A stretch of DNA of 64,000 nucleotides. Source: Chloroflexota bacterium. GTDB taxonomy: Bacteria > Chloroflexota > UBA11872 > VXNJ01. Every line of letters starts with the position of its first letter. Position 1 is the first letter of the stretch. Below, in pieces: positions 32,206 through 64,000 of this stretch. The stretch spans positions 2,589,404-2,653,403 of the forward strand of contig OZ242360.1 in NCBI GenBank assembly GCA_965208775.1, read 5' to 3'. A program made the position numbers and the translations under genes. The notes under the pieces were generated by a model. It was given only the letters and a program-made list of their open reading frames with translations, had not been told where the DNA came from and did no database searches.

Positions 32206-32231
32206 GGTAGCGCATATCCCTTAAGCCCCGT

Positions 32232-41561: not shown

Positions 41562-41732
41562 GGAAAATCTCCTTTACGGCTTGCGAGTAGCAGCGCCCAG
41601 GACGGGCTCGAACTCCGGGGTTTCGGGTCTGTGCATCGCCGGCCGCTGCTCTTGCAGCTGTCCGGCTCGCCACCGCGCTGATGACATCGTGCCTCGGGGA
41701 CCATGGACGCAGATCAACTCTCGGCCGCTCGG

Positions 41733-44700: not shown

Positions 44701-45755
44701 GCGTCCGCCAGGATCTGGACGACCCTGCTTATGTACCGGGAGCCGGCTTCCGACCGAACCGTGTACATCACGCTGTGGTGGAGATCCAGACCTCCGTCAG
44801 GCCCCAGGGCCTCAAGCGTGAGGCGCGACTTACCCACGCCGTAGAGGCCGACGATCCGGATGACGGTACGCGGCTCCGTAACGTGCTCGCGCAGGTGATT
44901 GCATAAGGCCCCCAAGCGTTCATCCTGCACCCAGGGCGAAGCGTAGTGCTCGGAGCGCTCGGCCCAGTGGCTCCAAGTCCGAAACGGCCCCATGGTTCCG
45001 GGTTGGGTCCGTTCCTTCAGCCATGTTGCGACAGCGGGGTGATGGTTCACCCAGCCGGCGATCTGATCCGCGTCTCGAAAGGCGACTTGGTCTCTATCGA
45101 GGACCAGACCCGCCGATGCAAGTGCCTTACGAATCCTGGATTCTCGCTTTTCGATTTGGTTCTGTGTGTAGGGCTGCGCGCAGATCAGTATGTAGCTGCC
45201 ACCCGCGGCGAGGGCCGTCCTCACCCAATCCTTCACGGCACCGTCGCTGTTAAGGACCGCCCTAGCCGCAGCGGCCGGCGATATGTTTCCGGATTTCAAC
45301 TGGAACAGATTGGGCCCAGAGGGAAGGAACTGTGTCGAATCCGGACCTGCATTCCACTCGATGCGTCCGTCCTCTCGTCCGTCAGGTGCCTGAAAATTGC
45401 TGGCGACCTGTCGTCGATCGAGGGGGAGGCCGTGTTCCCACTCTTCAGCATGGAGCAAGAGCCTCAACAATTCTGGAAGGAGTGTTTCTGCAAGAGCCGA
45501 GACATTGGCGCCGGTCACATCGAACGGCGAGGCTGCTCCGAATAGTCTGGGGTGAGACGCCCGTCCTCGCAGACTGGCCAGTGCCGTTGGATTGGCTTCC
45601 AAGAGCTTCAGCAGATGGAACACGGAAGCGTTTGGCGTGACGGTTCCGGCCTCGTACTTGGTAAATGCACGCGGTCCGCCGCCAATCAGTTCACCCGCCT
45701 CGACCTGCGACAGGCCGAGCCGTTGTCGAACACTGCGAATTTCTTCAGGAGTCAT
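41733..45755 (-). CDS. 1340-aa protein: N-terminal XRE-type HTH + STAND/NB-ARC-like P-loop NTPase + long helical C-terminal region
   Basis: HTH_XRE (RQRLGLSQVEAGELIGGGPRAFTKYEAG). Walker A IVGLYGVGKSRLTLEAL ~350 aa in, Walker B VVVIDDCD, followed by ~850 aa predicted helical repeats. Confidence 0.7.
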   Translation of the reverse strand: MTPEEIRSVRQRLGLSQVEAGELIGGGPRAFTKYEAGTVTPNASVFHLLKLLEANPTALASLRGRASHPRLFGAASPFDVTGANVSALAETLLPELLRLLLHAEEWEHGLPLDRRQVASNFQAPDGREDGRIEWNAGPDSTQFLPSGPNLFQLKSGNISPAAAARAVLNSDGAVKDWVRTALAAGGSYILICAQPYTQNQIEKRESRIRKALASAGLVLDRDQVAFRDADQIAGWVNHHPAVATWLKERTQPGTMGPFRTWSHWAERSEHYASPWVQDERLGALCNHLREHVTEPRTVIRIVGLYGVGKSRLTLEALGPDGGLDLHHSVMYTVRSEAGSRYISRVVQILADAGTRAVVVIDDCDPETHQVLARIALHRRSRLSMVTIDNEVPTGALGGNAHKIGEADPSVTEGILRALVPSLPDGDRIRLTHLSAGFPEMAVRLAQAWNASISVVDATSDQLVDAYVAGRTCRDRGSMTKSAALLAVFGLVRIEPRRDGQLCEIAKLDGALAYRDFHAAVMQVVDGGVAQRHGDLVTLKPLPIAMKLAERQWREWSPDTWDRVLSGDASTPLKLSAAEQLARLDGTDIAQEVTAQVCRQEGPFDGIDGISQDGHARVLSSLAEIHPAVVLSRINDSIAQVEDLSTLTDDVRRQLVWALEKIASHRTHFHDGARHLLRLATADELQSRSTVSREFGRLKQAAKTFCRLFSIHLGGTEADGNERLLFLDEVPDFNNPIEREIVAQALATGLQTSYLWQMGRPEAQGPRPALTPWQPATGGDVHRYVEECALRLARLALKDDEPSLGARSLLGDELFRLVQAGFIDAVAKVVRQVGNAVDYWPEALKCLWRLNDVYAEDLDPEISARIKQLAAVLQPKSPEARIRSLVTEVSWDGPGGSELDSDSRFELRVQEVRRLAEWLAKRPKVLIQHLPQLSRGRHAMSQAFGTAIAELAQSPLEWLEPIVKAVEAAPVEERNHDLLTGFAVGLAHDNFEKVDAFKRKAARSTELAPALPWLCWRLGITPDDIQLVIGSLEDGLLNPSLLNAWSFGQKLADVPPQHLAALFDTLLVHSPEGFAVAAHLMERFSHHDRDRLEDLRPQVLMLAEHSSRWKVPGTHGECKDSFRLVVGWLLRKGKQDTDAWAAAIALAKAVVKAEGIEHQVLLQPVLPRILSDLPEVSWPIIGQAIVSDRRRAWHLGLILGHSYSLPDRNAPLLSLPESALVGWCHGNPDHAPAFVAEHVPVLTPGADATGNPSLHPIIVRLLDEFGDRDDVLQGVDTNIHNFGWRGSKTTYFACYKQPLQELLQHKRPKVRRWARTMLRRLDQQIDAARKQDEEREAQWSL

Positions 45756-46675
45756 GAGAAACTTTCCTCAGGATTGCTGTGACCTCAAGTGAATTATACT
45801 GAATTATATCCCATTGAAGGCGGTTTGATAGCTAGTGGAAAAAATACACCATTAAGATCGGACTGGAAGCTAAACTTGGAACGGACAGCCGTTCGCGCCG
45901 CCTGGCTCTGATCGAGTCAGCGTTTCGGCCTAGGGCGACCTGCTCGGTTTCGGGCGTGCAGTCAGTAGTCGGACAGCGATGGAACGTGTCTGCAGAACTG
46001 ATCAAATAGGAGAGTTAGAGAATGGCGACATGGTACGGATGGCAACGGGGCGTGCAGCGCGCAGTCTTGGTCAGCAGACGCGATCGGGTTTCTGATGGAA
46101 GTATTGAGGGCCGATACCGGCTAACAGCCGTCGAGCTTACTTAAGGTGAGTGTTCGGGTACTAGCAACCGTTACCAAACGTTACCTTTGGTAGCAAAAAA
46201 AGATCTCCTATGGGATTTCTGACAGGGAAAAAAGATTTTCGGGCGGATTTGACGCGATTCGGCCATCGGGGAGGCGCACGAGGACGACAGGATCGTATGT
46301 CGAGCCCCAAGGTCACCAGCTCCACGATCCCCGCGAACATGCGGTTTGTAGCGCGTCTCATCGAAACTGGCCGCAACCCGATCCATGTTCAATCAATCTC
46401 TCTAACTCACCGTGTGGCGCGACGGGTGCGAACCGTGCGGTGATGAGGGCGTCGTCGCCGGGACCGAAAAACTCGACGGCAAGCGGCGGCGCTTATATAT
46501 AGAAAGTAATCATCAGTAGAAGCGCTCTCTGAAAGGTGTCGTCGGAAGCCCGGAGCGGGTCTTGGGAGCTGACCTGCTGGGCTCGATCCGCCAAGGACCT
46601 AGTTTGGAAACTGGAGCTAGGAGTGGGGCGCCCGGAGTTGAAGTTCGAGACGGTCCGGGGCGCGAGAATTAGGCG

Positions 46676-48283
46676 TCAGACGGCGAAGATTCTCTGGAGT
46701 GTGTAGCAGAAGCTGGCAGCGATGCGGGTGGCAGTCGCCTCAGCACTAGGGAACCTGTAATCGATGACGACCTCGACCCGCTTGGGCCCGTTATCGGGCT
46801 TGGTCGTGTGGACCGTGATGCGGCGCACCAGCAGCTTAACGATCTCGTGTCGTTCCTCGTCCGAGAGGTCCTGAGCGAGGCGTTCACGCAGCTCCGCCAG
46901 CACCTCCTCCGAGAGAGCAACGTCAGGAGAGTCCCGTTCGGCATCCAGATCGGCCAGCCGCGCATCCAGCGAGTTGAGTTCCTCATCCACCTCGGCGGCG
47001 ATGGAGTCGAACTCGGGCTGGGAGATCATGGCGCGGACGTAGAGGTCGATGGCGCGCTTGCGGCGGTCCTGGACTGCCGAGCGGGCTTCCAGGAGCGAGT
47101 CACGTTCAGGCTGAGCGACAGAGCAGTCCTCCAACTTCCCGTTCTCGACCGCAAGCTCGTCGACGAGAGGCTGGGGATCGGTGAGGAAGCGGCAGACATC
47201 CGACCAGACGACGGCCTCCAACCTGTCGCCCTTGATGGAAGCGCCGATGCACTTACCCGGGAAGGGGCCGCGTTCGACCATGGCGCCGTTGCAGCGATAG
47301 CGCGGCTTGGACCTGGCCCAGGTACCGCAGAAGGACAGGCCGCATACGGCGCAGCGGATGAGGGAGCGGAGGAGGTAGAAGCGGCGGGAAGAGGTCGCCG
47401 AGATGCGGTTGCGCTTGAGAGCGGCGATCGCGGCGTCCCAGGTTTCCTCAGAGACCAGGGCGGGCACAGAGGCCGAGATCACCTCCCTGCCATTGGGACG
47501 AGTCGATCGACGTCCGAACTGGAGGACGCCCTTGTAGACCGTGTTGTGGACGAGGTTGCGGATGTGGCCCGACCGCCAGAGGCCCTGTGTGCGCTTACCG
47601 CGAACGCCACGGCCAGCGCGGCGATACGAAGTGGGGATGCCCAGCGAGTTGAACTCGTCCGCGATCCGCCTGCAGCTCCAGCCGTCCGACGCGAGGTGGT
47701 CATAGATCCGTCTAATCACGTCAGCCGCAGACAAGTCCCCCCACATGATGGAGTCGTCCGGCACGAGATACTTGGCGCCCCTATCGCCCGAGACCCGGTA
47801 GCCAAGCGGGACGATCCCACCCGTATAGCGCCCCTCACGCGCCGCCCGGTTCATACCTTCTGCTGAGCGTTCGAGGAACTTACGCCGCTCATTGGCGGCG
47901 ATGACAGCATGGATATCGAAGTAGAACGGGTCGTCGATATTCTCGTCCGTAGCACGTAAAGAGACGCCGATCGACTCGAACACCCTCCAGATGCGGAGGA
48001 GTTCGAAGGCGTCGCGCCCCAGGCGATCCGAGCGGACCACCCAAAGCTGGGAGAAGCGGCCCGCGCCGGCATCACGTACCAGAGCGGCGCCCATAGGTCG
48101 CTGTTCCAGGGGGATCGTCCCCGACACCCCATCGTCCTCGTAATTGCGGAACACGACGACACCAGACTCAGAAGCCAGGCGGCGAGACAGCGCCGCGCGC
48201 TGGTTGAGGACCGTATGGCGGTCGCGCTGTTCGTCAGACGAGACGCGGGCATAGGTAGCGATGCGGACCATTGGACTGGTCAT
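46676..48283 (-). mobile_element. Large serine recombinase (resolvase-domain + recombinase + zinc-ribbon type)
   Basis: IATYARVSSDEQ catalytic Ser motif, GRYTGGIVPLGYR recombinase domain, C-terminal CxxC...C and a coiled-coil. Confidence 0.85.
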
Positions 48284-48514
48284 ATGACCTCCCTAGGTAA
48301 GGGGTAAAGGAGCGGTACCTATGAACGCTCTGGAGGCCGAATAGATCAAGGCGGACCGGCGTCCCGCGGGAGTGATGCCATAGCAACGACGCCGATCCGT
48401 CCGAAGGGCGGGGCACCCCCCTGGATGCGCGCAGACGTGGAAGAAGGCTGCGCAGCCACCCCGCCGGAACAGATTCTAGACTTGCGAGACCAGGACTCGA
48501 AGAGGCGGGACCTG

Positions 48515-49522
48515 CTAGCTCAAGCCGAGGACGGTGGCGACACCCTGCCAAGCGACGTCGCGCTGCCCCTCCAGCCTGCGGAGATAGGTGGTGGTGACCG
48601 CCAGCGAGCTGTGGTCGAGGAACTGGCTGACCGACTCCACCGACTCGCCCACGTCCCGGCGCAGCTTGGCGGCGGTGTGGCGGAGGACGTGAAGGCCCGA
48701 GGGAGGCAGACCGGCCAGACGGAGGTAGGTACGGAATCGGTTGTAGAAGGTAGAGGCCGTTACTCCCGAAGGACCAGCAGCCGCCTGCCAGAGCGACTCG
48801 CTGGGCTGCATCGACGAAAGGTCCTTGCCGACATCACTAAGCGAGCGCTGAATGGCGACCAGGGCTGGAGTGGGTAGTTCACGCCTGCCCCGCACGCCGC
48901 CCTTACCGATGTAGCGATAGAAGACAGCCGAGTCATCGAAGGAGACATCGCCGACCTTGAGGTTAATCACCTCCGACCTGCGTCTGGCCGTAAGAATGAG
49001 AGTGATGACGATCGCGCGGTCCCGCCTGCCCTTCACGGTGTCCGGTATGGCCCCAAGGAGCAACTGCACCTGGGAAGCGGTTAAGCCTCTAGGGGCGCTG
49101 GGTTGAATCTTGGGGCGTTCGACGGGATCGCAGGGATTGGATTTGAGGACATCCAGCCTGATGAGGAACTTGTAGAACGAAGAGATACAGCAGATACGAC
49201 CACTGACGGTAGAGGGAGACGGCTCACGACCAGACAGGCCTATGCCATGGGCGAAGGAAAAGACATCCTGAGCAGACACCTGATCCGGCGACTTCTGGGT
49301 AGAGCCGAAGAAATGGCGGAGAATGCGGTAGTAAGAGTCAGGGGTTCGCAGAGAACCGGAGCGGCGTTGCTTCTCGGCCAGGAAGGCATAGAGCGAGGCA
49401 TCCCAGCCCGACGCAGAGCCGGAGAAGACAGTGGGGAGAGTGGTTGGACCGGCGGTCATGGTGGTCTCCTTGAAGATGGAGAAGTTCCGCATGACGATTG
49501 CTCTGGTTGGCAGAATGATCAA
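48515..49522 (-). mobile_element. Tyrosine recombinase / phage-type integrase (XerC/D-like)
   Basis: Box I/II: RRSEV, LRHTAAKLRR, DHSSLAVTTTYL (catalytic R..HxxR..Y). Divergent from hsdM. Confidence 0.85.
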
Positions 49523-49626
49523 GCACTATGTGTGAATAGGAATGAGCCGTTGCAGACGCTCGGAGCACAGCCAAGACGCCGTCAATCACTCAGTGACTCA
49601 CGGAGCGACACTGTTATAATGCAGAT

Positions 49627-51467
<1,841 letters not shown>

Positions 51468-51471
<4 letters not shown>

Positions 51472-52805
51472 ACAGTGCATGGACATGGCGTCCCCTTGGA
51501 GAGTTGTTCGAGATCGGCGCGGGCAAGACGATGTCCGCCGCCGCGCGTCGGGGCCCCGACAAGACGCCTTTTCTTCGAACGTCGAACGTCCTCTGGGACG
51601 AGATTGACCTGTCGACCGTCGATGAGATGTCCATCCCGGAGCGCGAGTTGCCCGCCAAGCTGTTAACGCGAGGCGACCTGCTCGTCTGCGAGGGCGGCGA
51701 GATAGGACGTGCGGCAATCTGGGATGGTCAGATCGAACCGATGTCGTTCCAGAACCACCTGCATCGGCTGCGGCCAATCGATTCGAACGTCGAGCCGCGC
51801 TTTTACGTGTTCTTCCTGCAATCGGGTTTCACGCAGCTAGGCATCTTCGAAGGCGCAGGCAACAGAACGACGATCCCCAACCTGTCCCGTAGCCGCTTGG
51901 CGGGGCTGGACGTGCCTCAGCCCCCGTTAGCTGAGCAACAGGCAATCAGCGCGGCGCTCAATACGGTGCGCGACGCACTCAAAGTACAGGACCGGAGTAT
52001 CGAGATCTCACAAGACTTGAAACGCACCGCCATGCAGGCCCTCTTCGCCCGCGGCCTGCGCGGCGAACCTCAAAAGCACACCGACATCGGCCCCATCCCG
52101 GAGAGTTGGGAAGAGGCAACGCTAGGAGAATTGTGTGACATCACTAGTGGGGGGACTCCTCGGAAATCAGTCGCCGGGTTTTGGGGGGGAGTCATCCCTT
52201 GGGTCTCCGGCAAGGACCTGAAATGGCCTGTACTACATGATGCAATTGACCACGTTACGGATGAAGGAGTCCGAGCAGGTAGTCGATTGGCCTCCAAAGG
52301 ATCTGTCTTGTTGCTGGTTCGAGGAATGGGGCTGGCGAAGGACCTTCCAGTCGCCGTGATTAGTCGGCCAATGGCATTCAATCAGGATATAAAGGCACTC
52401 CTCCCTCGCGGCGAATGTCCGGGAAGCTTCTTGAGATCGGCGATCTACGCCGGTAAACAGCGGATGCTAAATCAGGTCGTGACGTCCGCACATGGGACGA
52501 TGACATTGAACCTCCATGATGTGCGGAACTTCAGAATCGCATGTCCGTCCGACCCGACCGAGTCCAACGAGATCGTTGCGATCCTCGACACGATCGACCG
52601 CAAGATAGACCTCCACCGCCGCAAGCGCGCCACCCTCGACGACCTCTTCAAATCCCTCCTCCACAGGTTTATGACGGGTGAGCTCAGTGTGATCGAACTG
52701 GATTTGACCGCGATTCCCACTCTAGGTCCAAAGGACGGAGGCGGAATCACTGAACCAATCATTGAAAAAGGAGAATTTGATGACATCCACCGGTATTCCC
52801 ATTGA
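51468..52805 (+). CDS. hsdS: Type I R-M specificity subunit HsdS (two TRDs)
   Basis: Starts in an ATGA overlap with hsdM. Central and distal conserved helices ([18 protein letters not shown]... and [22 protein letters not shown]). Confidence 0.85.
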
Positions 52806-53337
52806 GAGATTTCTCTTCGGGAATGAACATTGGAGATCCAACCGCGCCATAGACGAGATATGCGTTTACAGCGACTTGCTAGAAGAACTGCAAGACACGA
52901 TAGATGCTTTGGAAGTGCGCGGCAAAGATGAAGAGACTGCATTGGTCAACGCACAGGCAGTCATAAGTAGCTATGCGGTTGAAATCGCTATGAAATCCCT
53001 CTGGGCATTGGACAACTCTCCTGCAACCGTACCCCGTGGACGTCAGGGACATAACCTGCTCAGGATGTTCGACCGTCTGAAGCAAGAGACAGTGGAATCG
53101 CTTGGGCGACTTCAGCTGACCAGGACAGTCCTCGAAGAATGCCCTTCACCTTTCCCTAGTAACAGATACTCGATGGAATGCGGCAGTAGAGACATCGTGG
53201 TCTACGATGCGGGGTTCCTTAGGCAGCTTGCACAGGTGCTTAGAGAGAAGCTGGATCAAACGAGGACGCAATCACTCTCCCCCACCGCAAACGCGCCATC
53301 CTCGACGAACTCTTCAAGCCCCTCCTCCACAAGCTAA
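52762..53337 (+). CDS. Small helical protein inserted after hsdS; possible HEPN-like (RGRQGH, Rx4H) protein
   Basis: 191-aa ORF whose last ~25 codons (..APSSTNSSSPSSTS) are an off-frame reading of a duplicated hsdS 3' tail, so the real C-terminus is uncertain. The Rx4H motif alone is weak evidence. Confidence 0.35.
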   Translation: MKKENLMTSTGIPIERFLFGNEHWRSNRAIDEICVYSDLLEELQDTIDALEVRGKDEETALVNAQAVISSYAVEIAMKSLWALDNSPATVPRGRQGHNLLRMFDRLKQETVESLGRLQLTRTVLEECPSPFPSNRYSMECGSRDIVVYDAGFLRQLAQVLREKLDQTRTQSLSPTANAPSSTNSSSPSSTS

Positions 53338-53415
53338 TGACCGGCGAAATCCGCGTTGATGATCTCGACTTGCACGTGATCAAGCAACCGCTTCACCTCG
53401 ATGGAGAGATCCCTT
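53242..53415 (+). repeat. Second copy of the hsdS 3' conserved tail (gene-fragment remnant; frame-0 segment ...HRKRAILDELFKPLLHKLMTGEIRVDDLDL...)
   Basis: Direct nucleotide repeat of 52604-52690 (caccgcaaacgcgccatcctcgacgaactcttcaagcccctcctccacaagctaatgaccgg). Preceded by stops in frame and has no start codon. Confidence 0.7.
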
Positions 53416-53485
53416 GAGTGTGAAAGCCACCGCCCATTTGCCCACCTCCGCCGAAGCCAAATGCCAATGAAGATAAGGAGAACAG

Positions 53486-53947
53486 ATGATCGACCCGAAT
53501 TCTAGGGCAGCCGGCTCGACCGACGACGACAAGCAGGTCTTTACATTGCCACTTGGCGACGATGTGGATAGGCAACTCTACGCACTTGAGAAAGCACAGA
53601 AGGCTGTGTATGCGTTAGCCACAAAGCAAGGAGACCTCAAGGACCGGCTTGCTGAAGCCTTCACTGAACTCATTCGAATTGATGTATCGGCTGTTCCTGC
53701 TCACCTCCAGTCCGACTACAAGTGGATCAAGAACTCTCTGACAAGCAAGTCTGCCAAGCAACGCGCTTTTGCCCAGGGTAGATGGGTTGAAGGTGTCGAA
53801 GGTCGAATCGGCGCAACTCTGGCGTATATGCGACGGAAGAAGACGGAGGAAATAGCCGACCGCATCACCCAATTCGCGTCTCAACTAGAGGACGCAGTAA
53901 GCGCACCATCCTTGACGACCCCTTCAAGTCCCTCCTCCACAAGCTAA
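53486..53947 (+). CDS. Small hypothetical protein (153 aa) between hsdS-tail copies 2 and 3
   Basis: Coding-like, helical. The C-terminus (..APSLTTPSSPSSTS) again runs into an off-frame hsdS-tail repeat. Confidence 0.3.
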   Translation: MIDPNSRAAGSTDDDKQVFTLPLGDDVDRQLYALEKAQKAVYALATKQGDLKDRLAEAFTELIRIDVSAVPAHLQSDYKWIKNSLTSKSAKQRAFAQGRWVEGVEGRIGATLAYMRRKKTEEIADRITQFASQLEDAVSAPSLTTPSSPSSTS

Positions 53948-54048
53948 TGACCGGTGAGATACGGGCAGAAGAGCATGACCTCTCAGCAATCGGAAGACCA
54001 GCCGGCCGTAAGCTCGGTGAGATGAGACGACCACGCATATGTCAATAG
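53890..54048 (+). repeat. Third copy of the hsdS 3' conserved tail (frame-1 open segment ...KRTILDDPFKSLLHKLMTGEIRAEEHDL...), ending 10 nt into the helicase gene
   Basis: Direct repeat (aagcgcaccatccttgacgaccccttcaagtccctcctccacaagctaatgaccggtgag). No start codon. Confidence 0.7.
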
Positions 54049-56012
54049 AAAACCAGCCAACACCATGGCTCGAAGGGATCGAGGGCAGCGTTGCCCACGA
54101 GCTAATTGAGTCGGATGCACAGGTCATCCGCGTGGTAGCGGGACCTGGATCAGGGAAGACGACCTGTCTCAAGCGCCGACTCCAGCGTCTAATCCAGAAG
54201 GACGAGATCGATCCAAAGACGGTGTTCGTTGGAACGTTCACGAGGGCGATCTCAAGAGAGTTGAGAGAGGCGCTTGGTACGGAAGTTCGAATTTCGACGC
54301 TCCATTCACTAGCTTACGGACTGCTTCGAAAGTACCCGGCTGCGTGTCAGGGGATGCAATTGCGTTTTCTTCTGAGATTTGAAGAGGATGCATTGCTATA
54401 TGACGTCGAAGGGGTCGCCAAGTCGATAGGCAACATACACAAGCGCCGAGAAGCGCTTCGGATGTTACAGGCCAGTAGGTCGCAACGGGCAAAGTACGCG
54501 AATGCCAGATTTGATGGTGCCGTTAGACGTTGGTTGCAACGGCACCGAGCAATGTTAATAGGGGAGGTTGTCCATCTTTGTGTAGTCGGACTGGAGAGCG
54601 ACGACATTCCTTCCGGGTCTTTTGGTCACGTGGTGATCGACGAATATCAGGACCTCACTGCCGCAGAGCAGGAACTGGTGCGTCTCGTCTGGTCCACGAC
54701 GGGATCTCTGACAGTGTTAGGGGATAACGACCAATCGATATACGGCTTTCGATTTAACCATCCTGACGGGATTGCAGACTTCCATCTAGCTTGGCCTCAA
54801 TGCAAAGACTTGACATTCATTGATAACCGCCGTTGTGGAGAACGTATCCTCGACGTAGCTAACTTGATGATGGCCGAAGCCAGTGGCACGAAACCGCCGA
54901 TGAACTCAAAGAGTGCGCGTGTTGGCGAACTGAAGGCCGTTCAGTGGAACACTCTCGATGACGAGATTACTGGTCTGGCAAATGTCATCAACTCCTATGC
55001 AGACGAGTCGTTTCTCGTCCTCGTTCCTCGTCGCTTCATCGGCTATCGCTTGGCTGACGCAATTGGAAGTGACGCGAGAACGACGTTTTCTGAGCAGGCG
55101 TTAGAACACTCCATCGCGCAGGAGTGCTTTGCTACCGTGTCACTATTGGCCAACCCGGAAGACTTCGTAGCGGCTCGCGCCTATCTTGGATTTCATGGTA
55201 CGAGTCGAAAGCAGGCACCGGGTCGTAATGCGGAAGCCTACGCTAGTCTGCCGACAAACATTGGCGGCCACGAGATGATCCGGCAGATTGCAACTCAGAA
55301 GGTCAACATCTCTGGGACAGGACAGAGCCATATTCAGGAACGAGCGAAGAAGGCAGTTCAACTAATTGACTGCTCCTTGACACCAACAGAGACCATAGAC
55401 CTTGCGTTCAATGATTCACTGGCAAACGAAGAACAGGATGATGAAAAGCGGCGCTGGTTGGCCGAACACCTGCGAGAGCTTAGGGACGCGGCGCACGAAT
55501 TGTTGATGCGACCAGACACGCCTACCTTGTCGAAGGTCATTGAGACGATGAGGTACCAGATTGCTACTCGCGCACCTTTGCAAAGTTCCGATGACGAGGA
55601 GCCTCGCGTGAAAATCATGACACTTCATTCAGCTAAGGGACTCGAAGCCGACAACGTCGTAATTGCAGGTGTTGCCGATCAATTCATGCCGGGTACTGAA
55701 ACCGATCAAAATGTCATTGCGGAACAGAGACGACTGCTTTACGTGGCGGTTACACGTGCCAGAGACCGTCTGATCATTTCGTGGCCTCGAAGAATCAGGA
55801 CAGCCGACCTGATGAAGAATATGGGACGCCGAGGCCAGGTAACCACCACGAACGGCGAAAAATGGGGCATCACGTCACGCTGTTCCCTGCTTCCTCAAGG
55901 TCTGAGCGGCGTCATAACTGGTTCCCAGCTACTTGCCTCAGCGATTGAGGAAGCGGCGAGCCGTGGAGAAAGCCGTGCGCGCCACGCTCTCAAACATGCT
56001 GCCCCAGGTTAG
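54039..56012 (+). CDS. UvrD/PcrA/Rep-like SF1 DNA helicase, embedded between hsdS and hsdR
   Basis: Walker A VVAGPGSGKTTCL, motif II VIDEYQDLT, motif V/VI IMTLHSAKGLEADNVVIAGV ... LLYVAVTRARDRL. 657 aa with no nuclease domain recognised. Confidence 0.85.
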   Translation: MSIENQPTPWLEGIEGSVAHELIESDAQVIRVVAGPGSGKTTCLKRRLQRLIQKDEIDPKTVFVGTFTRAISRELREALGTEVRISTLHSLAYGLLRKYPAACQGMQLRFLLRFEEDALLYDVEGVAKSIGNIHKRREALRMLQASRSQRAKYANARFDGAVRRWLQRHRAMLIGEVVHLCVVGLESDDIPSGSFGHVVIDEYQDLTAAEQELVRLVWSTTGSLTVLGDNDQSIYGFRFNHPDGIADFHLAWPQCKDLTFIDNRRCGERILDVANLMMAEASGTKPPMNSKSARVGELKAVQWNTLDDEITGLANVINSYADESFLVLVPRRFIGYRLADAIGSDARTTFSEQALEHSIAQECFATVSLLANPEDFVAARAYLGFHGTSRKQAPGRNAEAYASLPTNIGGHEMIRQIATQKVNISGTGQSHIQERAKKAVQLIDCSLTPTETIDLAFNDSLANEEQDDEKRRWLAEHLRELRDAAHELLMRPDTPTLSKVIETMRYQIATRAPLQSSDDEEPRVKIMTLHSAKGLEADNVVIAGVADQFMPGTETDQNVIAEQRRLLYVAVTRARDRLIISWPRRIRTADLMKNMGRRGQVTTTNGEKWGITSRCSLLPQGLSGVITGSQLLASAIEEAASRGESRARHALKHAAPG

Positions 56013-56406
56013 ATTCCGCGTCCTTCATCACGATTCCCGCGCCCACTACGGCTTGCAGGTAGCGGATTACTGCTGCTGGGCGATCTTCAGGAAACACGAG
56101 CGGGGAGATTCGGCCCACTTCAACATAATCGGGAGCGCAGTGCGCAGCGAGTTCGACATCTTTCGGACAGGATCGACGTATTGCTACTGAATATGCCGAT
56201 TTGCAGACAAAAAACGACCTCCCCGACTACTCCGTTTCCGCGGAGAGCACCCGTGACTCTCTTGTCATCGGGGAGGGACCTTTGATCGACGATAACGCGC
56301 AAATGCAGGATGCGGCCAACAAACGCAAGACGCGGCCAACTTCCAGCCGGGCATTCAAAGAAGCCGCTGAGACTCACGCCGCCCCGCTCGAAGTGAGGAA
56401 ACGGCA

Positions 56407-56718
56407 ATGAACCCACGTATCTTCATCCCGAGGGACGCCCTTGCCACATTCTGCCGAGAAAATGGGATAGGGCGCTTGGCCGTCTTCGGCTCTGCGCTGC
56501 GCGAAGACTTCGGACCCGAAAGCGACATCGACCTGCTGGTCGAGTTTGAGCCGGACCGCGTTCCCGGGCTTTTCGGGCTGGCCGGTTTGGAGTTGCAATT
56601 GTCCGAACTGTTCGGCAGGCAGGTAGACCTTGTGACGCTCTCCGCCATTGAGCAGAGTCGGAACTATATCCGCCGAAAAGCTATTCTCGATTCCGCCGAG
56701 GAAGTCTATGCGGCGTGA
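56407..56718 (+). CDS. mntA: MntA-like minimal nucleotidyltransferase (antitoxin of a HEPN/MNT pair)
   Basis: 103 aa; GSALREDFGPESDIDLLVEF = the GS..D[ID]D nucleotidyltransferase motif. Confidence 0.75.
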   Translation: MNPRIFIPRDALATFCRENGIGRLAVFGSALREDFGPESDIDLLVEFEPDRVPGLFGLAGLELQLSELFGRQVDLVTLSAIEQSRNYIRRKAILDSAEEVYAA

Positions 56719-57073
56719 CGACGCATACCTGCTGGACATGCTCCTGTCGTCCCGGGACGCGGTCGAGTTTGCCTCCGATATCACCTACGCGGAGTTCTGG
56801 GAGAGCCGTCTTCACCGGAATGCAATCTTGAAGTCGATTGAAATAGTCGGCGAGGCCGCGTCTCGCGTAAGCGCTGGAGCTAGAGAGGCCCACAACGAAA
56901 TTCCATGGGGCGAAATTATCGGAATGCGCAATCGCATCGTGCACGCCTATTTCGAAATTGATATCGAGCTTGTTTGGAGAGTCGTAAAGGACGATCTGCC
57001 GAAGCTCATTACCCGGCTTGATAGAATAGTGCCTCCCGACCCGAGTCGTAAGCGGACCAGTGAAGATAACTGA
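56708..57073 (+). CDS. hepT: HepT-like HEPN toxin (DUF86); start taken at internal Met overlapping the mntA end by 11 nt
   Basis: C-terminal RNRIVHAY (Rx4HxY HEPN RNase motif). Its 3' end overlaps the hsdR start by 14 nt. Confidence 0.75.
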
Positions 57074-60002
57074 AGCGGACGTCGCGCAGTTTCCGATGGT
57101 CCGCCACGCGGCGGAGATCGGCTGGACCCCCATCCCGCCAGGTGCCGCCAAGCGAAAGCGCGGCGGCGAAACCGGGATGCTCTTACGTGGCGAGCTCGAA
57201 GCCAGACTGGCCGCCTTCAATCCGTGGATGTCGTCCGACGCCATACGCCAAGTCGTCGAGCGGATCGAGGCCCTGCCGCCCACCATCGAGGGCAACTGCG
57301 AGATGCTCGGCTGGCTGCGCGGCGAGCGGCAGTCGCACGACGAAACCGAGAACCTGAATCGGCGCGTCCGGCTGATCGACTTCGACTCGCCCGCCGCCAA
57401 CAGGTTTCACGTCACCTGGGAATGGCGGCTCAAGCCCCCCGCGCGCAAGGCCAACCGCGCCGACGTGATGTTCGTCGTCAACGGCGTTCCTGTCGCCATC
57501 GTCGAGCACAAGAACCCCAAGGACGCCAACGCCATCGAACGCGGCGTCAAGCAGCTCAAGCGCTACGAGATAGAGACCCCCGAGCTACTCGGCTCCCCGC
57601 AGCTGTTCAACGTGACCCACGTTCTCGACTACTGGTACGGCGCTACCTGGAACGCCAACCGGCGCTACATGGCGCGCTGGAAACGGCAACGAGAGGAAAC
57701 CTACAGGTTCGCCGTTCAGTCGTTCTTTGAGCCGACCGACTTCCTGCGCACGCTGCGCGACTGGATTCTGTTCTACGTCGAGGACGGCGAGACTCGAAAG
57801 TCGGTCTTGCGCCAGCATCAGCGCCGCGCCATCGACCGCATAGTCGAGCGCTGCTCCGAGCCTGACAGGCGGCGCGGACTCATTTGGCACACCCAGGGTT
57901 CCGGCAAGACCTTCACCCTCCTCACCGCCGCCCGCCTGATCCTGGAGCGTAAGGCGGAGTTCCAAACGCCTACGGTGGTGGTGGTCGTCGACCGTACCGA
58001 GCTCGAGGGTCAGCTTGAAGGTTGGGTCGAGAGGCTGCTCGGGGAGATGAAGCAGCAGGACATTCCGGTCTGGCGCGCCGGCTCAAGAGCCGAGCTCCGT
58101 GAGATTCTCGCGACCGACAAGCGCGGCCTGGTCATCTCGATGATCCACAAGTTCGAGGGAATCCAGAAGAACGCCAACGTCCGCGGCAACATTTTCGTCT
58201 TCATCGACGAAGCGCACCGCTCCGTCGCCAGGGACCTCGGGACCTATCTCATGGCGGCCCTGCCCAACGCTACGATCATCGGCTTTACCGGCACGCCCAT
58301 AGACAGGACGCAGCACGGACAAGGCACTTTCGTGATTTTCGGTGCCGACGACGACCGGGGCTATCTCGACAAGTACACCATCGCCGAGTCGATAGAAGAC
58401 GAGACCACCCTGCCGATCCGGCATACGATGGCATCGAGTGAGATGACTGTCCCGACCGAGAGGCTGGACAAGGAGTTCTTCGAACTGGCCACGGCCGAGG
58501 AAGTCACCGACGTCGAACAGCTCAACAGGGTCCTCGACCGGGCGGTAGACCTCCGCGCGTTTCTGACCGCCGACGACCGAATCGAGAAAGTCGCCGCGTT
58601 CGTTGCCAAGCACTTCAGGGAGAATGTACAGCCCCTGGGCTACAAGGCGTTTCTGGTCGGAGTCAACCGCGAAGCCTGCGCCAAATACAAGCAAGCCCTC
58701 GACAGGTTTCTGCCGCCCGAATGGTCAATGCCGGTCTACTCCGCAAACCCAGACGACATAGTCGACCGCCCGCTTGTCGCCGAGCTCCAGCTATCGCGTG
58801 CCCAGGAGTCGGACGTCCGGCTCTTGTTCAAGAGGGCCAACGAAAACCCGAAGATTCTGATCGTCACCGACAAGCTCCTTACAGGCTACGACGCGTCATT
58901 GCTCTACTGCATGTATTTGGACAAGCCGATGCGCGACCATGTGCTCCTGCAGGCGATAGCCAGAGTGAATCGCCCCTACGTGGACGCGAACGGCGTCCGC
59001 AAGCCCATAGGCTTGGTCATCGACTTCGTGGGCGTTCTGCGCGAGTTGAAGAAATCGCTGCGGTTCGACAGCTCCGACGTTGAAGGTGTGATCCAAGACC
59101 TCGATCTGCTGTTCAGGGACTTTGTCACGAAGATTCATGAGGTGGCGGTCGGATATCTCCACGACCTGCCGGAAATTACCGATGATGAAGCCTTGGAAAA
59201 GGTCGTCTTCGGGCGATTTCTCGACCCCGAGCAGCGCAAGGAGTTCTTCGAGAAATTCAAGCAGATCGAGGCGCTCTGGGAAATCCTCTCGCCCTCGCCC
59301 GAGTTGCGCGATTACATCGATTCGTTCCGGCAGCTTGTCGCCTTGTACGCCGCCGTGCGCGGTGCCTATGCGCCCGGAGTCAGTTTCAGTGCAGATCTGG
59401 CTAACAAGACGAGATCCATGGTGCAGGCGCGCACTGCCCAGGATGGTCCCGACTACTTCACAAAGTCCGTTACGTTCGACTTGCCCACCCTCAAAGCGCT
59501 GCGAGAAGAGCCGGGATCAGACGAGGCCAAGATATTCAATCTTGTGCGGGGTCTACGAGTAGAAATCCAACGCGACCGGGACATGGCGCCCGTGCTTCAA
59601 ACCCTTAAGGAACGCGCTGAGCGCATCCTTCAGGAATTCCAAAACCGCAACGTGGACAGCCTTGCCGCGATGAACCTGCTGGAGCAATTGGCAGACGAAA
59701 AGGAAGCCGCAGTCGAAGCCGCGAACGATAGCGGTCTGTCGTCTCGGGGATTCGGCGTTTACTGGACTCTCAGGGAAGACAGCGCTCTGGAAGCGGCAGG
59801 GATTCCCGCCGCGGAGCTGGCCGAAGAGGCGGAAACGCTATCTGCCCGCTTTCCGAACGCCGCCGTAAACGCCGACGAGGCGCGTAGACTCCGAGCCGCC
59901 CTGTATCTTCCGCTTCTCAAACTTGACAACGAGGAGCGTATCCGAATCATCGATGCGATACTCGGAATCCTGCTTGACGTGGACTCGGATGCGCATAGCT
60001 GA
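57060..60002 (+). CDS. hsdR: Type I restriction enzyme R subunit HsdR
   Basis: 980 aa. Walker [18 protein letters not shown] box [10 protein letters not shown], helicase motif [11 protein letters not shown]-terminal nuclease region present. Confidence 0.9.
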
Positions 60003-60297
60003 GGAGCGCCGCCGGGTCATTCGTGATCGCGTCGAATACTGGACTCAACGACTCAGCGTCGCCCCCAGGGTTGTTCGCGTGCAGCACATGACTCGCAAGT
60101 GGGCTTCCTGCTCAACATCTGGTGTTCTCACATTCGCGATCGATCTGGCTGAACAGGAACCCGGATTTCGAGACTTCGCCATAGTCCACGAGCTATTGCA
60201 CCTGCGCGTTCCCAACCACGGAAAGCTGTTCAAGGCGTTGATGACCGTTCATGTACCAGACTGGAGAAAGTATGAAGTGGGCAGGAACCATTTGTGA
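59923..60297 (+). CDS. DUF45/YgjP-like zinc metallopeptidase (WLM-type HExxH), short form, overlapping the hsdR 3' end
   Basis: HELLHL (HExxH) motif. This family commonly follows hsdR. Likely starts at an internal Met ~59986. Confidence 0.55.
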
Positions 60298-60557
60298 CCT
60301 GCGCTCCAAAATCTGTCCCCGGACATAAATCGGGATTTGCGGCCGGAGTCTGCTTCCCTAGCTGACTGCTGAATACCGCGACCAAGTCAGCTGCCGCGCG
60401 GAGCCAACGAGCATTCGTGAAGCCGACTCGATCTAGGTGGACGAGTAGAGACTCCTACCGGTCAATCACGCTGCTTTCTCGGATTGGAGGGCGCCAATCT
60501 GGTTTGGCCATGGGCAGGTTTCAGGCACCGTTCGACGCCGCCTTGATCCTCACTAAG

Positions 60558-61790
60558 CAGACTTAGGGTTGCGCTTGCGGGTGGTGAATCGTTCGATTCG
60601 AGCCTGTCAGCGCTGACCAATTCAAGCCACCTCAACTGCATCAGTGGGCAGTCGATTCCAATGCGTCGTTCCAGTCCCGTCGTTTCCATTGGCGTTTCAA
60701 AGAGGCACGCGAGCAGACGTCACGCTTCCGTCTGTTTCTTCGTCTCCCTCTTGGACGACCTGTAGCCGACCGGCATTTCAGTGAAGACATAGGTACGGTT
60801 TTCGCCGTCATCGCCCAACTTGCGACGCTGACTGCTTACTGCAGTACGCATGGTACGAGTACCGGAGTTCGCCTGAAGGCGCTGGTCCCTGTTGATCATC
60901 AGGCGTCAGGCCAAAGCTGACGAAGTCCGAGGGCCTGCTCGACCCGTCCAGGGTCGTGATCACGCCCTAACGGGAGTCCGTCAACGCCAGGGCGCTCTCG
61001 ACCACCTCCTGGAGCACGGTGTCGAAATCGAGGCTCTCGTTTACGCGCAGGCTGGACTCGCTAAGCCGCGTCAGCCGGTCTCCGAGAGCCTGACTCTCCA
61101 AGTCTCGAAGATCCTGTCGGTCTATCTATAGGCCTCGATCAGGCAGCAGAAGGTCCGGTAAACCAGCCGATGTGAAACGGCAATTGCGGGTCCGGATTGG
61201 GTGTTTCCAGAGCAATTATGCCGGATTCGACTGAAACTCACACTGATCTTATGCAAACGGGTCGCCATTCTCACGCCCATCTTATACACGACTTCTAGAC
61301 TAAAGCGTCACTGACCCGCCGAGGGGAGGCAGCCGCTTGGCCTTCGACTTCGATGGTTTCGACGCGTCTGGACCTTTGGATGTCGAACGGTCTTCAAGGT
61401 TGAACGCGGTGCGGCCTTGTCACTAGCCCGGGCGTCCCGAACGAGAGTGGGGCGGTGCCGGAGAGGATCGGGAGTGGCGTGAGTGGTGTCAGGCCAATCG
61501 CCGGCAGTTGCACCTGTCATCCGTGTTGCAGTCGTGGTCATCCGGCCATTCATCGTCTAACTCTTCCGGGCAAGCCGTTTCCCAGGGCTGATTGGCGCGC
61601 AACTCACCTAGCCCTGGTCACGGAGGGCGGGGTGAGCCCCCTGGCTAGCCCTCTACCCAACTTAGCCAGTTGGCCGCCCCGCCCTTTTCAGAATGGAGCG
61701 CCATGCAGGAGCGAGACGTCGTTGTCCTGATCGCGGTCGTGCTGATCGCGGCTGTCCTGATTGTCCTGGCCATGTTCTTGACGACCGTGT
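60558..61790. repeat. Copy B of the ~1.2 kb imperfect direct repeat (pairs with 12427-13628)
   Basis: See copy A. Has a 15-nt internal tandem duplication (gatcgcggtcgtgctgatcgcggctgtcctga) relative to copy A. Confidence 0.85.
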
Positions 61791-61828
61791 GGCCGGTGAG
61801 CGCGGCTACGAGCTGCCCGCCCTGTTAG
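61703..61828 (+). pseudogene. Truncated duplicate of the lipoprotein gene 5' end (41 codons, MQERDVVVLIAVV...)
   Basis: Shares the RBS/start and first ~20 codons with the gene at 13565, then diverges to a stop. Lies inside repeat copy B. Confidence 0.4.
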
Positions 61829-62051
61829 GGAACAGACCGGCGCTCCGTGTGGACTCCGCCGCCGCCCCGGACTGTTTTCGGGTACCGCGGCGACATCGCC
61901 GCCTGATCGGTATATCGATGTTCCAAAGACAACAGTCAAGCCCTCAAAACCGGCTGCGGCCGCGTCTGGTCGCACATGCGCTCTGAGCCACACTGGTCTA
62001 TGAACTAGGTCTCGTTTGCGACTGATTGCCGTAATTCTCGCATTGGTCGGC

Positions 62052-64000
62052 ATGGGGCTGTTCGCAAGCCTGCTGCCTCAGACTAGCTTCGTCTCGCGGT
62101 CTTCCGGCGAGGTTGTCGACGCTATCGGTCCCGTCTGGCCCAGTTTCGCCGTCGAGCAGGTCCTGGACGATGTAGACATCATTTCGGAAGTCCGCATTTG
62201 GGCTGCGGCCGGCTTCGATCGCGGGGAAGCCCCAATTGCCGCCTCGCTACTCCGCCAGGCCGACAGGGAACCGGTGCGTCAGTACCAGGCTCGGATACGC
62301 TCCAGTAAAGTCCTCCTCCCATACGTTCTCGTCTTTCCGCCGTATGAGCCCACGCCCGGTGAGAAACTGGTATTGCAACTCTGGGTCTCCACCGAGCGGG
62401 AAAACAGCGCCATATTCGGCACAACCAAGCCAAAAGAACACGTAACCCCGCCAACGCTCGCCGGTGGACCCGCGGACAAGGGCACTCTCGCTTACGAAGT
62501 GATTTGGAGAGGAACCGGTTGGCAGGCCGCTCTCGAGGGATCTACGCCAGACCTTGCGCGCCTGGCAGGAGCGCTGGCGGGTACGACGCTAGCCGTTGCG
62601 TTAGCATTACTGTCGTACACCCCCCCCCGCGTCTCCCGACCTCTACGCAACGCCACGCGGAGGGTGCGAGTTGGGCTTCTGTCCCTGGCCAGCCGCCTAC
62701 CCGTCGTGCCGAGAGCATGGCACGGTGACCTCGGTGAGCAAGCGTCGGATTTTCAGACTTCAACCGCGCGGCGCGCCTTGTACGTCTTTCCGTGGCTAAT
62801 CCCCGCTTTCGCGATACTGCACTATCTCTCCAGCAACCTAATCCTGTTTCGCGTCTCCGAGTCGATTGCGGTCTTCGTCGTCACCATGGCGACCGTCACG
62901 GTCGCCTTCGTGGTTTGTCGGCTGATATTCAAGACGGCCGCTGTCGCGGCGGCGCTCACGGGGCTGCTCGGAATCGTGTTCTTCTCTTACGGCCATGTGT
63001 ACATTGCGCTCGGCGATCGCGCCGACGATAGATTTCTTCTTGGACTGGGACTGCCGATCATGCTCGGCCTCGGGGCCCTACTGATACGACGACGTGAACT
63101 AGCGCGCAAGATTAGGATGTCCCTCAACGTGGGCAGCGTTTTGCTTGTTCTCTTGCCCATTTACCAGATCGCCACCGACTTCCACGCAGGCAGCCGACCG
63201 CAAGACGTTGACCCTTTCGACGGTTTCCCGGGACTCGACGAACGGCTCGCCGAAGCCAGGGACAGACTCTCAAGAGATCAACTTAGAGACATCTATTACA
63301 TCATCCTGGATGAATATCCCAGGAGCGGTTCGCCTCCGGAGTTCGACAACAGCGAATTCGTGCAGCAACTGGAAAACCGCGGCTTCTACGTGGCCCCACA
63401 AGCTCGCAGTAACTACATGCGCACGTACCAGTCGATTCCCTCATCCCTGAACATGGGTTACGTCCACGAGGAGCGTTCCAGTTCCGGCGGCGAATTACGC
63501 CGACGATTGCTGGCGCGGGCAGGCGACAACGCGCTGGGCAGAATCATGGCGGCCCTGGGATATCGATACGTGCATGTCGCCTCCGGATCCGACTGGACGA
63601 ACACAAGCCGCAACGCCGCGGTCGTCGTGGAGTTCACGCCCGCCGGGGTTGCTCTTGCGGGAGATGAATCCGAGGACCCGTTTGCATTCGATAGGGCCAG
63701 GAGGCTGTCGGGTAGATTCACGGACGCATTCCTGCGAACGACTACCGCCAGACCGTTCCTTCCGAGGAGATTCGACATTCAGCCGGAGGACCCCTACGCG
63801 TACCCTCCAGGTCATCCGTTCCGGACGCTCGCGTGGCTGGATTTCATGAAGACCGTTGGGACCATGGAAGGTCCCAAGTTCGTCTTCGCACACCTGCTAA
63901 AGCCGCACGGGCCGTATTCGTTCGACAGGCACGGAAACATCACTTTCGACAGTTGGGGCTGGCCTGACGATCATGATCCAACGGTGTCCGAAGCCTTCTA
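62052..64000 (+). CDS. Partial CDS running off the window end: polytopic membrane N-terminus + sulfatase/alkaline-phosphatase-superfamily (LtaS/MdoB-like) domain
   Basis: Open frame from the stop at 62001-62003 to the window end, first ATG at 62052; not in the ORF track because no stop is reached. ~5 TM helices, then DIYYIILDEYPRSGSPPEFDNSEFVQQLENRGFYVAPQARSNYMRTYQSIPSSLNMGY, resembling the N-terminal metal-binding region of membrane sulfatases. Confidence 0.45.
   Translation, partial: MGLFASLLPQTSFVSRSSGEVVDAIGPVWPSFAVEQVLDDVDIISEVRIWAAAGFDRGEAPIAASLLRQADREPVRQYQARIRSSKVLLPYVLVFPPYEPTPGEKLVLQLWVSTERENSAIFGTTKPKEHVTPPTLAGGPADKGTLAYEVIWRGTGWQAALEGSTPDLARLAGALAGTTLAVALALLSYTPPRVSRPLRNATRRVRVGLLSLASRLPVVPRAWHGDLGEQASDFQTSTARRALYVFPWLIPAFAILHYLSSNLILFRVSESIAVFVVTMATVTVAFVVCRLIFKTAAVAAALTGLLGIVFFSYGHVYIALGDRADDRFLLGLGLPIMLGLGALLIRRRELARKIRMSLNVGSVLLVLLPIYQIATDFHAGSRPQDVDPFDGFPGLDERLAEARDRLSRDQLRDIYYIILDEYPRSGSPPEFDNSEFVQQLENRGFYVAPQARSNYMRTYQSIPSSLNMGYVHEERSSSGGELRRRLLARAGDNALGRIMAALGYRYVHVASGSDWTNTSRNAAVVVEFTPAGVALAGDESEDPFAFDRARRLSGRFTDAFLRTTTARPFLPRRFDIQPEDPYAYPPGHPFRTLAWLDFMKTVGTMEGPKFVFAHLLKPHGPYSFDRHGNITFDSWGWPDDHDPTVSEAF

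Follow-up and report, generated by a model that had tools for sequence, protein, structure and literature searches.

This analysis concerns a type I restriction-modification (R-M) operon in a Chloroflexota bacterium, in which fragments of the 3′ end of hsdS stand among the genes that separate hsdS from hsdR. The window, that is, the whole stretch of DNA analyzed, comprises 64,000 nucleotides (nt) of contig OZ242360.1 (assembly GCA_965208775.1, positions 2,589,404 to 2,653,403). A single same-strand gene string spans 49.6-60.3 kb of the window, and its domain content identifies it as a type I R-M operon in the order helix-turn-helix (HTH)-hsdM, hsdS, cargo, hsdR, and ygjP-like, with cargo denoting whatever lies between hsdS and hsdR.

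All genes of the operon are on the plus strand. The first, hsdM (49627-51471), matches the Pfam methylase domains N6_Mtase (1.4e-74) and HsdM_N (4e-22) and has an N-terminal HTH domain (HTH_31/HTH_3, residues 12-66). This domain (49627-49830) is fused to HsdM throughout the HsdM family, recalling the separate RptR repressor ahead of enterobacterial type I operons. The hsdS gene (51468-52805; 445 amino acids, aa) is intact, with two stretches matched by Pfam Methylase_S, and consists of a first target recognition domain (TRD1), a central conserved region, TRD2, and a distal conserved region, the two conserved regions being alignable with relatives. In hsdR (57060-60002), a nuclease N-terminus (HSDR_N, 8e-24) is joined to a superfamily 2 (SF2) motor, with matches to SWI2_SNF2 (2e-56), ResIII, and a T1R_D3-like domain. 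The string closes with a gene for a YgjP-like (M48-type) metallopeptidase (59923-60297; Pfam YgjP-like, 3e-23), conserved as the last gene of the operon and present, as judged by tblastn, in 56 of the related loci compared. The G+C content is 62-69% in hsdM and hsdR and falls to 50-57% across ~52.0-56.2 kb. A promoter-like site lies at 49593-49620, before hsdM, in a scan whose total was no higher than chance; promoter and terminator scans of the operon returned nothing beyond chance and no sign of expression signals in the hsdS-derived repeats described below.

Tails of hsdS and the genes beside them

The last ~35 codons of hsdS recur twice more downstream, and the copies are referred to here as tails. 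Tail 1 (52569-52715), the functional distal conserved region of hsdS recognized by tblastn and profile matches, serves as the reference copy, to which tail 2 (53272-53417; a hybrid remnant) and tail 3 (53896-54048), both on the plus strand, show 75% and 66% ungapped identity, respectively. A repeat search returned a single family of three direct copies, 52611-52714, 53277-53380 (75%), and 53887-53990 (66%), spaced by 666 and 610 nt. A DNA profile built from 77 functional tails of this hsdS family matched 53272-53382 (nhmmer E = 3.1e-21) and 53894-53992 (E = 3.4e-17), and beyond tails 1-3 it found nothing above noise on either strand of the 64-kb window. The first-pass annotation, which had claimed that the hsdS tail recurs as two downstream direct repeats lacking a start codon, is borne out on both counts, as no start codon lies upstream of either copy in the hsdS frame. 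In this frame, tail 2 reads HRKRAILDELFKPLLHKLMTGEIRVDDLDLHVIKQ...stop (53283-53417) and tail 3 reads KRTILDDPFKSLLHKLMTGEIRAEEHDLSAIG...stop (53899-54048), both open and both ending at natural-looking stops. Each copy had been placed in a different frame, which proved incorrect: tail 2 shares the absolute frame of hsdS (666 = 3 × 222), and tail 3 alone is shifted.

The core of the tail, ~25 nt (CTCCTCCACAAGCTAATGACCGG), encodes LLHKLMTG. Tails 2 and 3 are identical over a 25-nt core (CCCTCCTCCACAAGCTAATGACCGG), where none is expected by chance; tail 1 mismatches it at 4/26 positions, and the overall identity among the copies is ~66-77%. Because tails 2 and 3 are nearer the family consensus (LLHKLMTGEIR) than the resident tail and share a perfect core, they are non-functional distal-region fragments of other hsdS alleles, rather than in situ duplications of the resident tail, as had been proposed. 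These remnants probably have no function. Their translation by frameshifting was considered and rejected, given that no slippery site is present and that the remnants are decayed in three related loci, L011, L014, and L002 (L numbers designate related loci throughout). All loci were also searched for comparable scars derived from other hsd stretches (the 5′ ends of hsdR and hsdS, the 3′ end of hsdM, and the central conserved region), of which the window has none, and a plasmid collection gave no match to 52560-54060. The tail core does occur on two viral contigs, both with ordinary single-tail loci.

Five intact genes and one pseudogene, all on the plus strand, occupy 52780-57073 between hsdS and hsdR, not three captured genes as first counted: a HEPN-like gene, ORF153 (ORF, open reading frame), a helicase gene, MNT, and HepT, together with a 3′ fragment of a DUF3800 gene. 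The HEPN-like gene (52780-53337) had been read as a 191-aa ORF starting inside the hsdS tail; the ORF stands, with its likely start shifted to the ATG at 52780, which is preceded by AGGAG and gives a 185-aa product, the one on record in the protein collection. Its 140 homologues are typically 166-171 aa long, and in their alignment homology stops at ...TR.(E/Q)L(L/I)SP, placing the native end at ~53283. The AlphaFold model is all-helical (predicted local distance difference test, pLDDT, 79), and HEPN proteins are among its top PDB fold matches, none of them significant (E 0.35-2); hence, the label 'HEPN-like', which comes from one source annotation and these matches, should be taken as a lead only. 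A conserved partner gene was sought in 18 genome loci and none was found. ORF153 (53486-53947; native end ~53896), encoding another small helical protein, has nine homologues, and its model (pLDDT 75) gives no significant PDB fold match. Neither small gene has a Pfam, PADLOC, or NCBIfam match. Both reading frames run off-frame into the next tail and end in ...SSPSSTS, an ending already suspected to be artefactual; the homologues stop ~15 (HEPN-like) and ~5 (ORF153) residues sooner, and the ...SSPSSTS ends are therefore read-through into the remnants. The possibility that the C-terminal helices of these small proteins derive from the HsdS helix was also rejected, since in L023 ORF149 is intact and a complete distal region is retained downstream of it, which makes the two separate.

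The third cargo gene (54039-56012; 657 aa) is predicted to encode a GajB-like helicase of the UvrD/SF1 type (Pfam UvrD-helicase and UvrD_C; PADLOC GajB, 3.3e-44) and has more than 1700 relatives, covering 96% of the query. Its ATG at 54039 overlaps the end of tail 3, consistent with the first-pass annotation, and its last ~25 residues, beyond a native end at ~55930, are read-through into the DUF3800 fragment (55948-56190). The latter matches positions 113-149 only of the 149-position Pfam profile: L019 has an intact gene (250 aa) at the corresponding place, of which the window retains the 3′ third alone. It should be noted for annotation that, in both small proteins and in the helicase alike, the C-terminal extension is a read-through artefact. 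DUF3800 genes also recur as cargo in L028, L037, L061, L075, and L022. MNT (56407-56718; Pfam NTP_transf_2, 9e-15; PADLOC candidate family PDC-S09, 7e-24) and the overlapping HepT (56648-57073; Pfam HepT-like, 8e-24) are adjacent nucleotidyltransferase and HepT genes, as in MNT-HepT toxin-antitoxin pairs. The pair precedes hsdR also in L019, L021, and L104, and MNT was seen by tblastn in L014. About 70 nt upstream of the pair lies a tandem 20-nt direct repeat (56300-56339; CAAATGCAGGATGCGGCCAA / CAAACGCAAGACGCGGCCAA, 85%), which could be an operator-like element.

Mosaic structure and variable cargo among related loci

Three related loci each match a different segment of the region between hsdS and hsdR. 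L019, a 13.7-kb metagenome contig, is 84-91% identical to the window in hsdM, hsdR, and the segment made of tail and HEPN-like gene, and has the order hsdM, hsdS, HEPN, tail 2 (cut after LMTG), a 178-aa ORF, DUF3800, MNT, HepT, hsdR, and ygjP. Positions 52568-53344 of the window match L019 3283-4059 at 91.0%, after which homology is absent until 56014, inside DUF3800. Positions 53328-53965 match L021 9842-10480 at 81.8%, L021 having a truncated tail, an ORF153 homologue, and a further tail in the same order. Positions 53896-55915 match L104 9882-11895 at 73.8%, and here the order is hsdM, hsdS, helicase, MNT, HepT, hsdR, and ygjP, with the helicase, 79% identical at the aa level, directly after an intact hsdS. 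A source in which the helicase directly follows hsdS had been predicted from the position of tail 3 and was borne out in L104, the single helicase context examined.

The changes of nearest relative fall inside the tails. The left part of tail 2 (to 53344) is 87.7% identical to tail 2 of L019, and its right part (from 53328) is 81.8% identical to L021; with the halves swapped, that is, left against L021 and right against L019, no alignment was obtained. For the left part of tail 3, identity is 91.9% to tail_c of L021 vs 73.0% to L104. The right part aligns weakly with L104 (59.7%), and over its whole length tail 3 is collinear with the tail of the hsdS gene ahead of the L104 helicase. Thus, joint 1 lies within the ~25-nt core (LLHKLMTG) of tail 2, and joint 2 corresponds to a 70-nt overlap that covers the left part and the core of tail 3. 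At the level of aligned sequence, these matches show the cargo region to be a mosaic of L019-, L021-, and L104-like segments joined inside tails 2 and 3, and crossovers in the tail core fit the identities of the segments. At its right end, the imported block has an illegitimate join that cost the helicase its last few codons and DUF3800 its first two thirds; in other words, import of the helicase block cut the DUF3800 gene.

Mosaicism extends into hsdS itself. TRD1 (51453-51989) is 82.7% identical to that of L021, which shares neither TRD2 nor the tail, and the central region (52020-52111) is 91% identical to L019. The hsdS of L021 (8658-9836) is a half-hsdS consisting of TRD1, a hybrid helix (first half of the central region and second half of the distal region), and, in frame, an unrelated helical sequence of 183 aa. 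It is followed by the 5′-truncated tail, and this locus additionally carries two HEPN-like genes (189 and 178 aa).

A search with HsdM yielded 80 further metagenome loci at 69-78% aa identity, and, taking HsdM-derived and cargo-gene-derived loci together, 66 contain both an hsdS tail and hsdR. In 33 of these 66, cargo of 0.6-10 kb, mostly defense-type genes, separates the two; in the remaining 33, the distance between the tail and the hsdR start is fixed (gap -15 to +30 nt). Cargo families include Fic, SLFN/AlbA_2, DUF3800, TIR, a 2032-aa AAA_16 protein, DUF2806, DUF4917, GNAT, AAA_21/15 ATPases, PIN, and Lipase_3. Cargo starts where hsdR would otherwise start, the HEPN-like gene at 52762/52780 vs a predicted 52757 and the helicase at 54039 vs ~54033. 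Same-strand non-hsd genes between hsd genes, differing among homologous operons, support the view of the hsdS-hsdR junction as a site of variable cargo in this type I family, in line with the defense-gene hotspot envisaged from the window alone. By family resemblance, the embedded genes of the window (the GajB-like helicase, the PDC-S09 MNT, and HepT) are of the defense type. The cargo of L022 (8053-18240) extends to ~10 kb and comprises Lipase_3, an ORF153 homologue, TIR_2, LD_cluster2, ThsB_TIR, FitA/PIN, DUF3800, and Phd, and so would amount to a whole defense island inside one operon.

Extra tails are far rarer than cargo. By tblastn, nhmmer, and hmmsearch, none was found in the 60 loci reached via HsdM alone, 27 with cargo among them, and none of the 60 has a second hsdS. 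Strong extra tails are confined to the window, L019, L021, and L023, all reached via the HEPN-like gene or ORF153; the comparison set amounts to four loci from two or three independent lineages. The absence of extra tails from the HsdM-only loci therefore indicates that they travel with the two small genes and do not mark cargo insertion in general. Among related hsdMSR loci, cargo is present, absent, or different from locus to locus, and the insertion junction bears a strong extra tail in the above four only.

On present alignments, the remnants are better described as travelling 3′ of two particular genes, HEPN-like and ORF153. In L016, L019, and L020, the HEPN-like gene lies 3′ of hsdS, and in L014 it comes after an hsdS tail; it has diverged roughly in step with hsdM and hsdR, albeit less in L016. 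It is an old resident of the clade, not the recently captured insert that it was taken for. Decayed tails right after HEPN-like homologues were detected by targeted nhmmer in L011 (10519-10562, E 4e-4), L014 (10510-10570, 5e-4), and L002 (10511-10544, 0.015); among 420 random segments used as a control, only two besides true tails scored above 5. In L011 and L002, these decayed tails lie outside any type I locus, which suggests that the HEPN-like gene left type I operons together with its downstream scar. The native 3′ end of the HEPN family (in L011, CTCAAACCGCCGCAAGCGTAA) shares a 13-nt microhomology, ACCGCCGCAAGCG, with the HRRKR codons of the tail, where the remnant begins.

For ORF153, all four contexts examined (of nine homologues) are between hsdS and hsdR of the same type I family. 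Its junction with the tail is common to the window, L021, and, judging from a read-through C-terminus (...NEPPSTISSNPSGKSR), the paralogue P0122 (74% identical), which is encoded at another site of this 3.24-Mb genome. The genome therefore probably has a further type I locus that bears this scar and holds P0122, a possible donor. Exact-sequence look-ups with hsdS, the HEPN-like ORF (as 191 and as 185 aa), ORF153, and P0122 returned no entry. In L023, a complete distal-region remnant follows ORF149.

Recombination in the hsdS tail and other readings

We consider it about two-thirds probable that homologous recombination in the conserved distal region of hsdS left the extra tails as scars and has re-used them as crossover points, with occasional illegitimate joins on the right-hand side. 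The alignments directly show the repeats, the mosaic, its breakpoints, and the cargo polymorphism. From these, we infer the order of events and homologous recombination of the RecA type as the agent. In founder events, DNA of a related operon would have been joined by one crossover in conserved hsd sequence and an illegitimate or microhomology-based join at the 3′ end of a cargo gene. If the 3′ end of the cargo gene was thereby fused to the HRRKR region of an hsdS tail, the older tail would be stranded downstream, giving rise to two long-lived units, 'HEPN-like gene + tail' and 'ORF153 + tail'. A stranded tail would then share ~100 nt of homology with any hsdS of the family, and later exchanges would cross over in the longest identical stretch, the ~25-nt LLHKLMTG codons, such that the moving module becomes 'right part of tail + gene + left part of next tail'. 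In the window, a locus resembling L019 (hsdS, HEPN, tail 2, 178-aa ORF, DUF3800, MNT-HepT, and hsdR) may have received a block made of the right part of tail 2, ORF153, tail 3, and the helicase, with its left end in the tail core and its right end at the illegitimate join. Transfer could have proceeded via linear double crossovers or via circular single-crossover (Campbell-type) intermediates. The first-pass idea of repeated cassette insertion at the hsdS tail survives insofar as recombination in the tail appears to have moved cargo, as seen in the switches among L019, L021, and L104; a duplicated tail per inserted gene is no general rule (0/60).

Several points weigh against this account. The polarity of events is unprovable from four or five loci, in which the DUF3800 truncation alone appears to root one step. 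Any model would in part predict breakpoints in the core, since no other stretch between the variable flanks is as conserved. The copies, at 66-77% identity, are poor RecA substrates, only the 25-nt core being identical. In addition, the remnants of the window and L019 are well preserved (open and ~80-90% identical to other tails), and the same junction is decayed in L011, L014, and L002. To stay so, the remnants would have to be refreshed repeatedly, through recombination or gene conversion, or else to have formed independently at this one site; we read their preservation as refreshing by recombination. Finally, a tyrosine recombinase lies within 10 kb of three of the four loci with strong extra tails, with at most one weak match (L071) near the ~85 loci without them. 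When the comparison is limited to loci with at least 3 kb on both sides (n = 22), a tyrosine recombinase is near two of the three with extra tails vs none of the 19 without. Recombination in the tail would explain this association only indirectly, as a marker of mobile context.

Alternatively, the remnants may have formed in place: ancestral tandem hsdS or half-hsdS genes would have decayed as cargo replaced their TRDs, leaving the tails, with no exchange between loci via tails. Such a course is conceivable in a family that rearranges around conserved helices, as the fusion of the L021 half-hsdS in frame to an unrelated 183-aa ORF illustrates, and the remnant of L023 starts exactly at the boundary between TRD2 and the distal region (PPALNQQSGIVEML...), just as a 5′-deleted hsdS would. 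As a complete explanation, however, it is unlikely, since a second hsdS or tail occurs in 0/60 HsdM-only loci, the tail halves have different nearest relatives (L019, L021, and L104), the helicase source arrangement, as L104 shows, is an intact hsdS followed directly by the helicase, and decay alone leaves the tail-core breakpoints unexplained. Decay in place of a tandem hsdS may nevertheless have produced the first remnant.

Still less probable is a dedicated cassette system, in which the ~25-nt core would act as an attC/attI-like site and the tyrosine recombinases that accompany mobile operons would excise and insert 'cargo + tail' cassettes. Its appeal lies in the layout: same-strand genes separated by a repeated site, both segment joints at or overlapping the core, a perfect 25-nt core in tails 2 and 3, good preservation of remnants whose junction looks old, tyrosine recombinases near 3/4 of the strong extra-tail loci, and, in the window, a 335-aa enzyme encoded on the minus strand (48515-49522) divergently from hsdM, at 104 nt, much as the ~100 nt initially noted. 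This enzyme, however, scores 35.3 bits vs a cut-off of 265 for an integron integrase (NCBIfam), its best matches being of the XerA/XerC/XerD type. Among ~90 loci examined, any tyrosine recombinase occurs in three or four and a homologue of this one in L019 only, where it (62% aa identity, fragmented) lies downstream of ygjP beside a Cas4-like gene (10137-12708), not upstream of hsdM; the recombinase and the operon thus seem to be linked, but without a fixed arrangement. Those of the window and L023 are 26% identical and on opposite sides of the operon, and L021 has none. DNA folding of the three tails on both strands revealed no attC-like hairpin (z -0.97 to +1.31), and no second copy of the core was found near the recombinase genes. 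The 5′ ends of the remnants are ragged, differing by up to ~120 nt (PPALNQQ..., HRKR, KRT, and HELITG), while the crossovers cluster in or overlap the 25-nt core, which is simply the most conserved stretch of HsdS codons. Moreover, the 27 cargo-bearing HsdM-only loci have no extra tail, and most cargo-bearing relatives also have no recombinase. The site-specific recombination first suggested for the locus is thus not supported.

A phase-variable specificity switch (shufflon or inverton), also raised at first, would alter the methylation target by recombination between the expressed hsdS and the additional hsdS pieces. It can be dismissed, even though the locus, like the pneumococcal, Mycoplasma, and Bacteroides systems (PMC7672463, PMC7394358), combines multiple sequences of hsdS origin with a neighboring tyrosine recombinase: the repeat search and nhmmer on both strands of the window found all copies direct and none inverted, recombination between direct copies would merely delete cargo, and the remnants, consisting of the distal conserved helix only and flanked by ORFs without a Methylase_S match, contain no TRD, so exchange cannot yield new specificity.

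Known systems and the surrounding island

Defense genes are known from within type I R-M operons, with the hsdS-hsdR interval as their most frequent position, and such embedding has already been used to discover new defense systems; PrrC is one example of a defense gene so placed. DarTG2 lies between hsdS and hsdR within the RRDM island of enteropathogenic Escherichia coli (EPEC), a site proposed as a potential recombination hotspot for defense genes (PMC12255303), and TgvAB of the Vibrio island VPI-2 consists of defense genes embedded in a type I R-M operon (PMC11411939). A 'guilt-by-embedding' survey of BREX, DISARM, and type I R-M reported 17,432 embedded genes (bioRxiv 10.1101/2024.01.29.577857). 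The window resembles these operons in having same-strand defense-type genes between hsdS and hsdR, with cargo varying among relatives, and the RRDM island in particular in its HTH regulator in front (fused to HsdM in the window) and the M48/YgjP-type peptidase gene at the end. The three reports describe neither hsdS fragments between the genes nor a sequence-level mechanism, and the words 'hsdS' and 'recombination' are both absent from the text of the survey; the window, by contrast, displays stranded tails and breakpoints. The locus is hence a known kind of hotspot with new, modest mechanistic detail, not a dedicated gene-capture system.

Recombination in conserved regions of hsdS is known to reshuffle type I specificity genes, for example in Xylella fastidiosa (bioRxiv 10.1101/2022.09.01.506293), and HsdS domains move in Helicobacter pylori (PMC3077401). 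The likeness to TRD reassortment is that crossovers fall in short conserved hsdS segments flanking variable DNA; the difference is that the window exchanges downstream cargo, not recognition domains only, and that pseudogene tails outside hsdS also serve as crossover sites. By analogy, the moving unit also crosses gene boundaries in the tandem paralogous lipoprotein genes of Staphylococcus, for which evolutionary units that run from the 3′ end of a gene across the spacer into the 5′ end of its neighbor have been described (Tsuru and Kobayashi 2008, PMC2568036). Integron arrays likewise string together promoter-less genes on one strand; a repeated site comes after each gene and contains the module boundaries. 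The window differs from them in having no IntI-type integrase or hairpin, and in a repeat that is a protein-coding fragment with unfixed boundaries, absent from most cargo-bearing relatives. Phase-variable type I systems share with the window more than one hsdS-derived sequence and an adjacent tyrosine recombinase, but in the window the copies are direct, have no recognition domains, and alternate with unrelated genes. Unlike a 3′-end-targeting integrative element, the window has no integrase between its direct repeats: no recombinase gene lies between tail 1 and tail 3, all of them being upstream of hsdM. Similarly, it differs from Gabija in that the GajB-like helicase has no GajA partner (an OLD-family ATPase/TOPRIM nuclease), no such gene being found in the window locus or L104.

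How cargo enters and is exchanged between hsdS and hsdR had not been worked out at sequence level. The mosaic points to the hsdS distal region as the left-hand homology arm for cargo exchange and to the stranded copies as re-usable scars of past exchanges. If this holds more widely, hsdS-tail fragments would be cheap markers with which to delimit cargo modules and reconstruct their history. Were the cassette reading true instead, some type I R-M loci would be integron-like platforms for defense genes.

The operon stands at the edge of a larger defense island (30619-49522). Past the operon, no ORF on either strand of 60300-64000 (3.7 kb) exceeds 132 aa, and this stretch, which also lacks tRNA and Rfam matches, may be decayed or non-coding DNA at the island border; neither tRNA genes nor Rfam families were found elsewhere in the window. 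Upstream of hsdM, the island comprises, on the minus strand, Cas3 (32232-34778), a ParB-N/N6_N4 DNA methylase (40266-41561), a 1340-aa protein with an MqsA/HTH N-terminus (41733-45755), a large serine recombinase (46676-48283), and the Xer-like tyrosine recombinase discussed above, together with, on the plus strand, an Mrr-type restriction endonuclease with a HARE-HTH domain (36264-37238).

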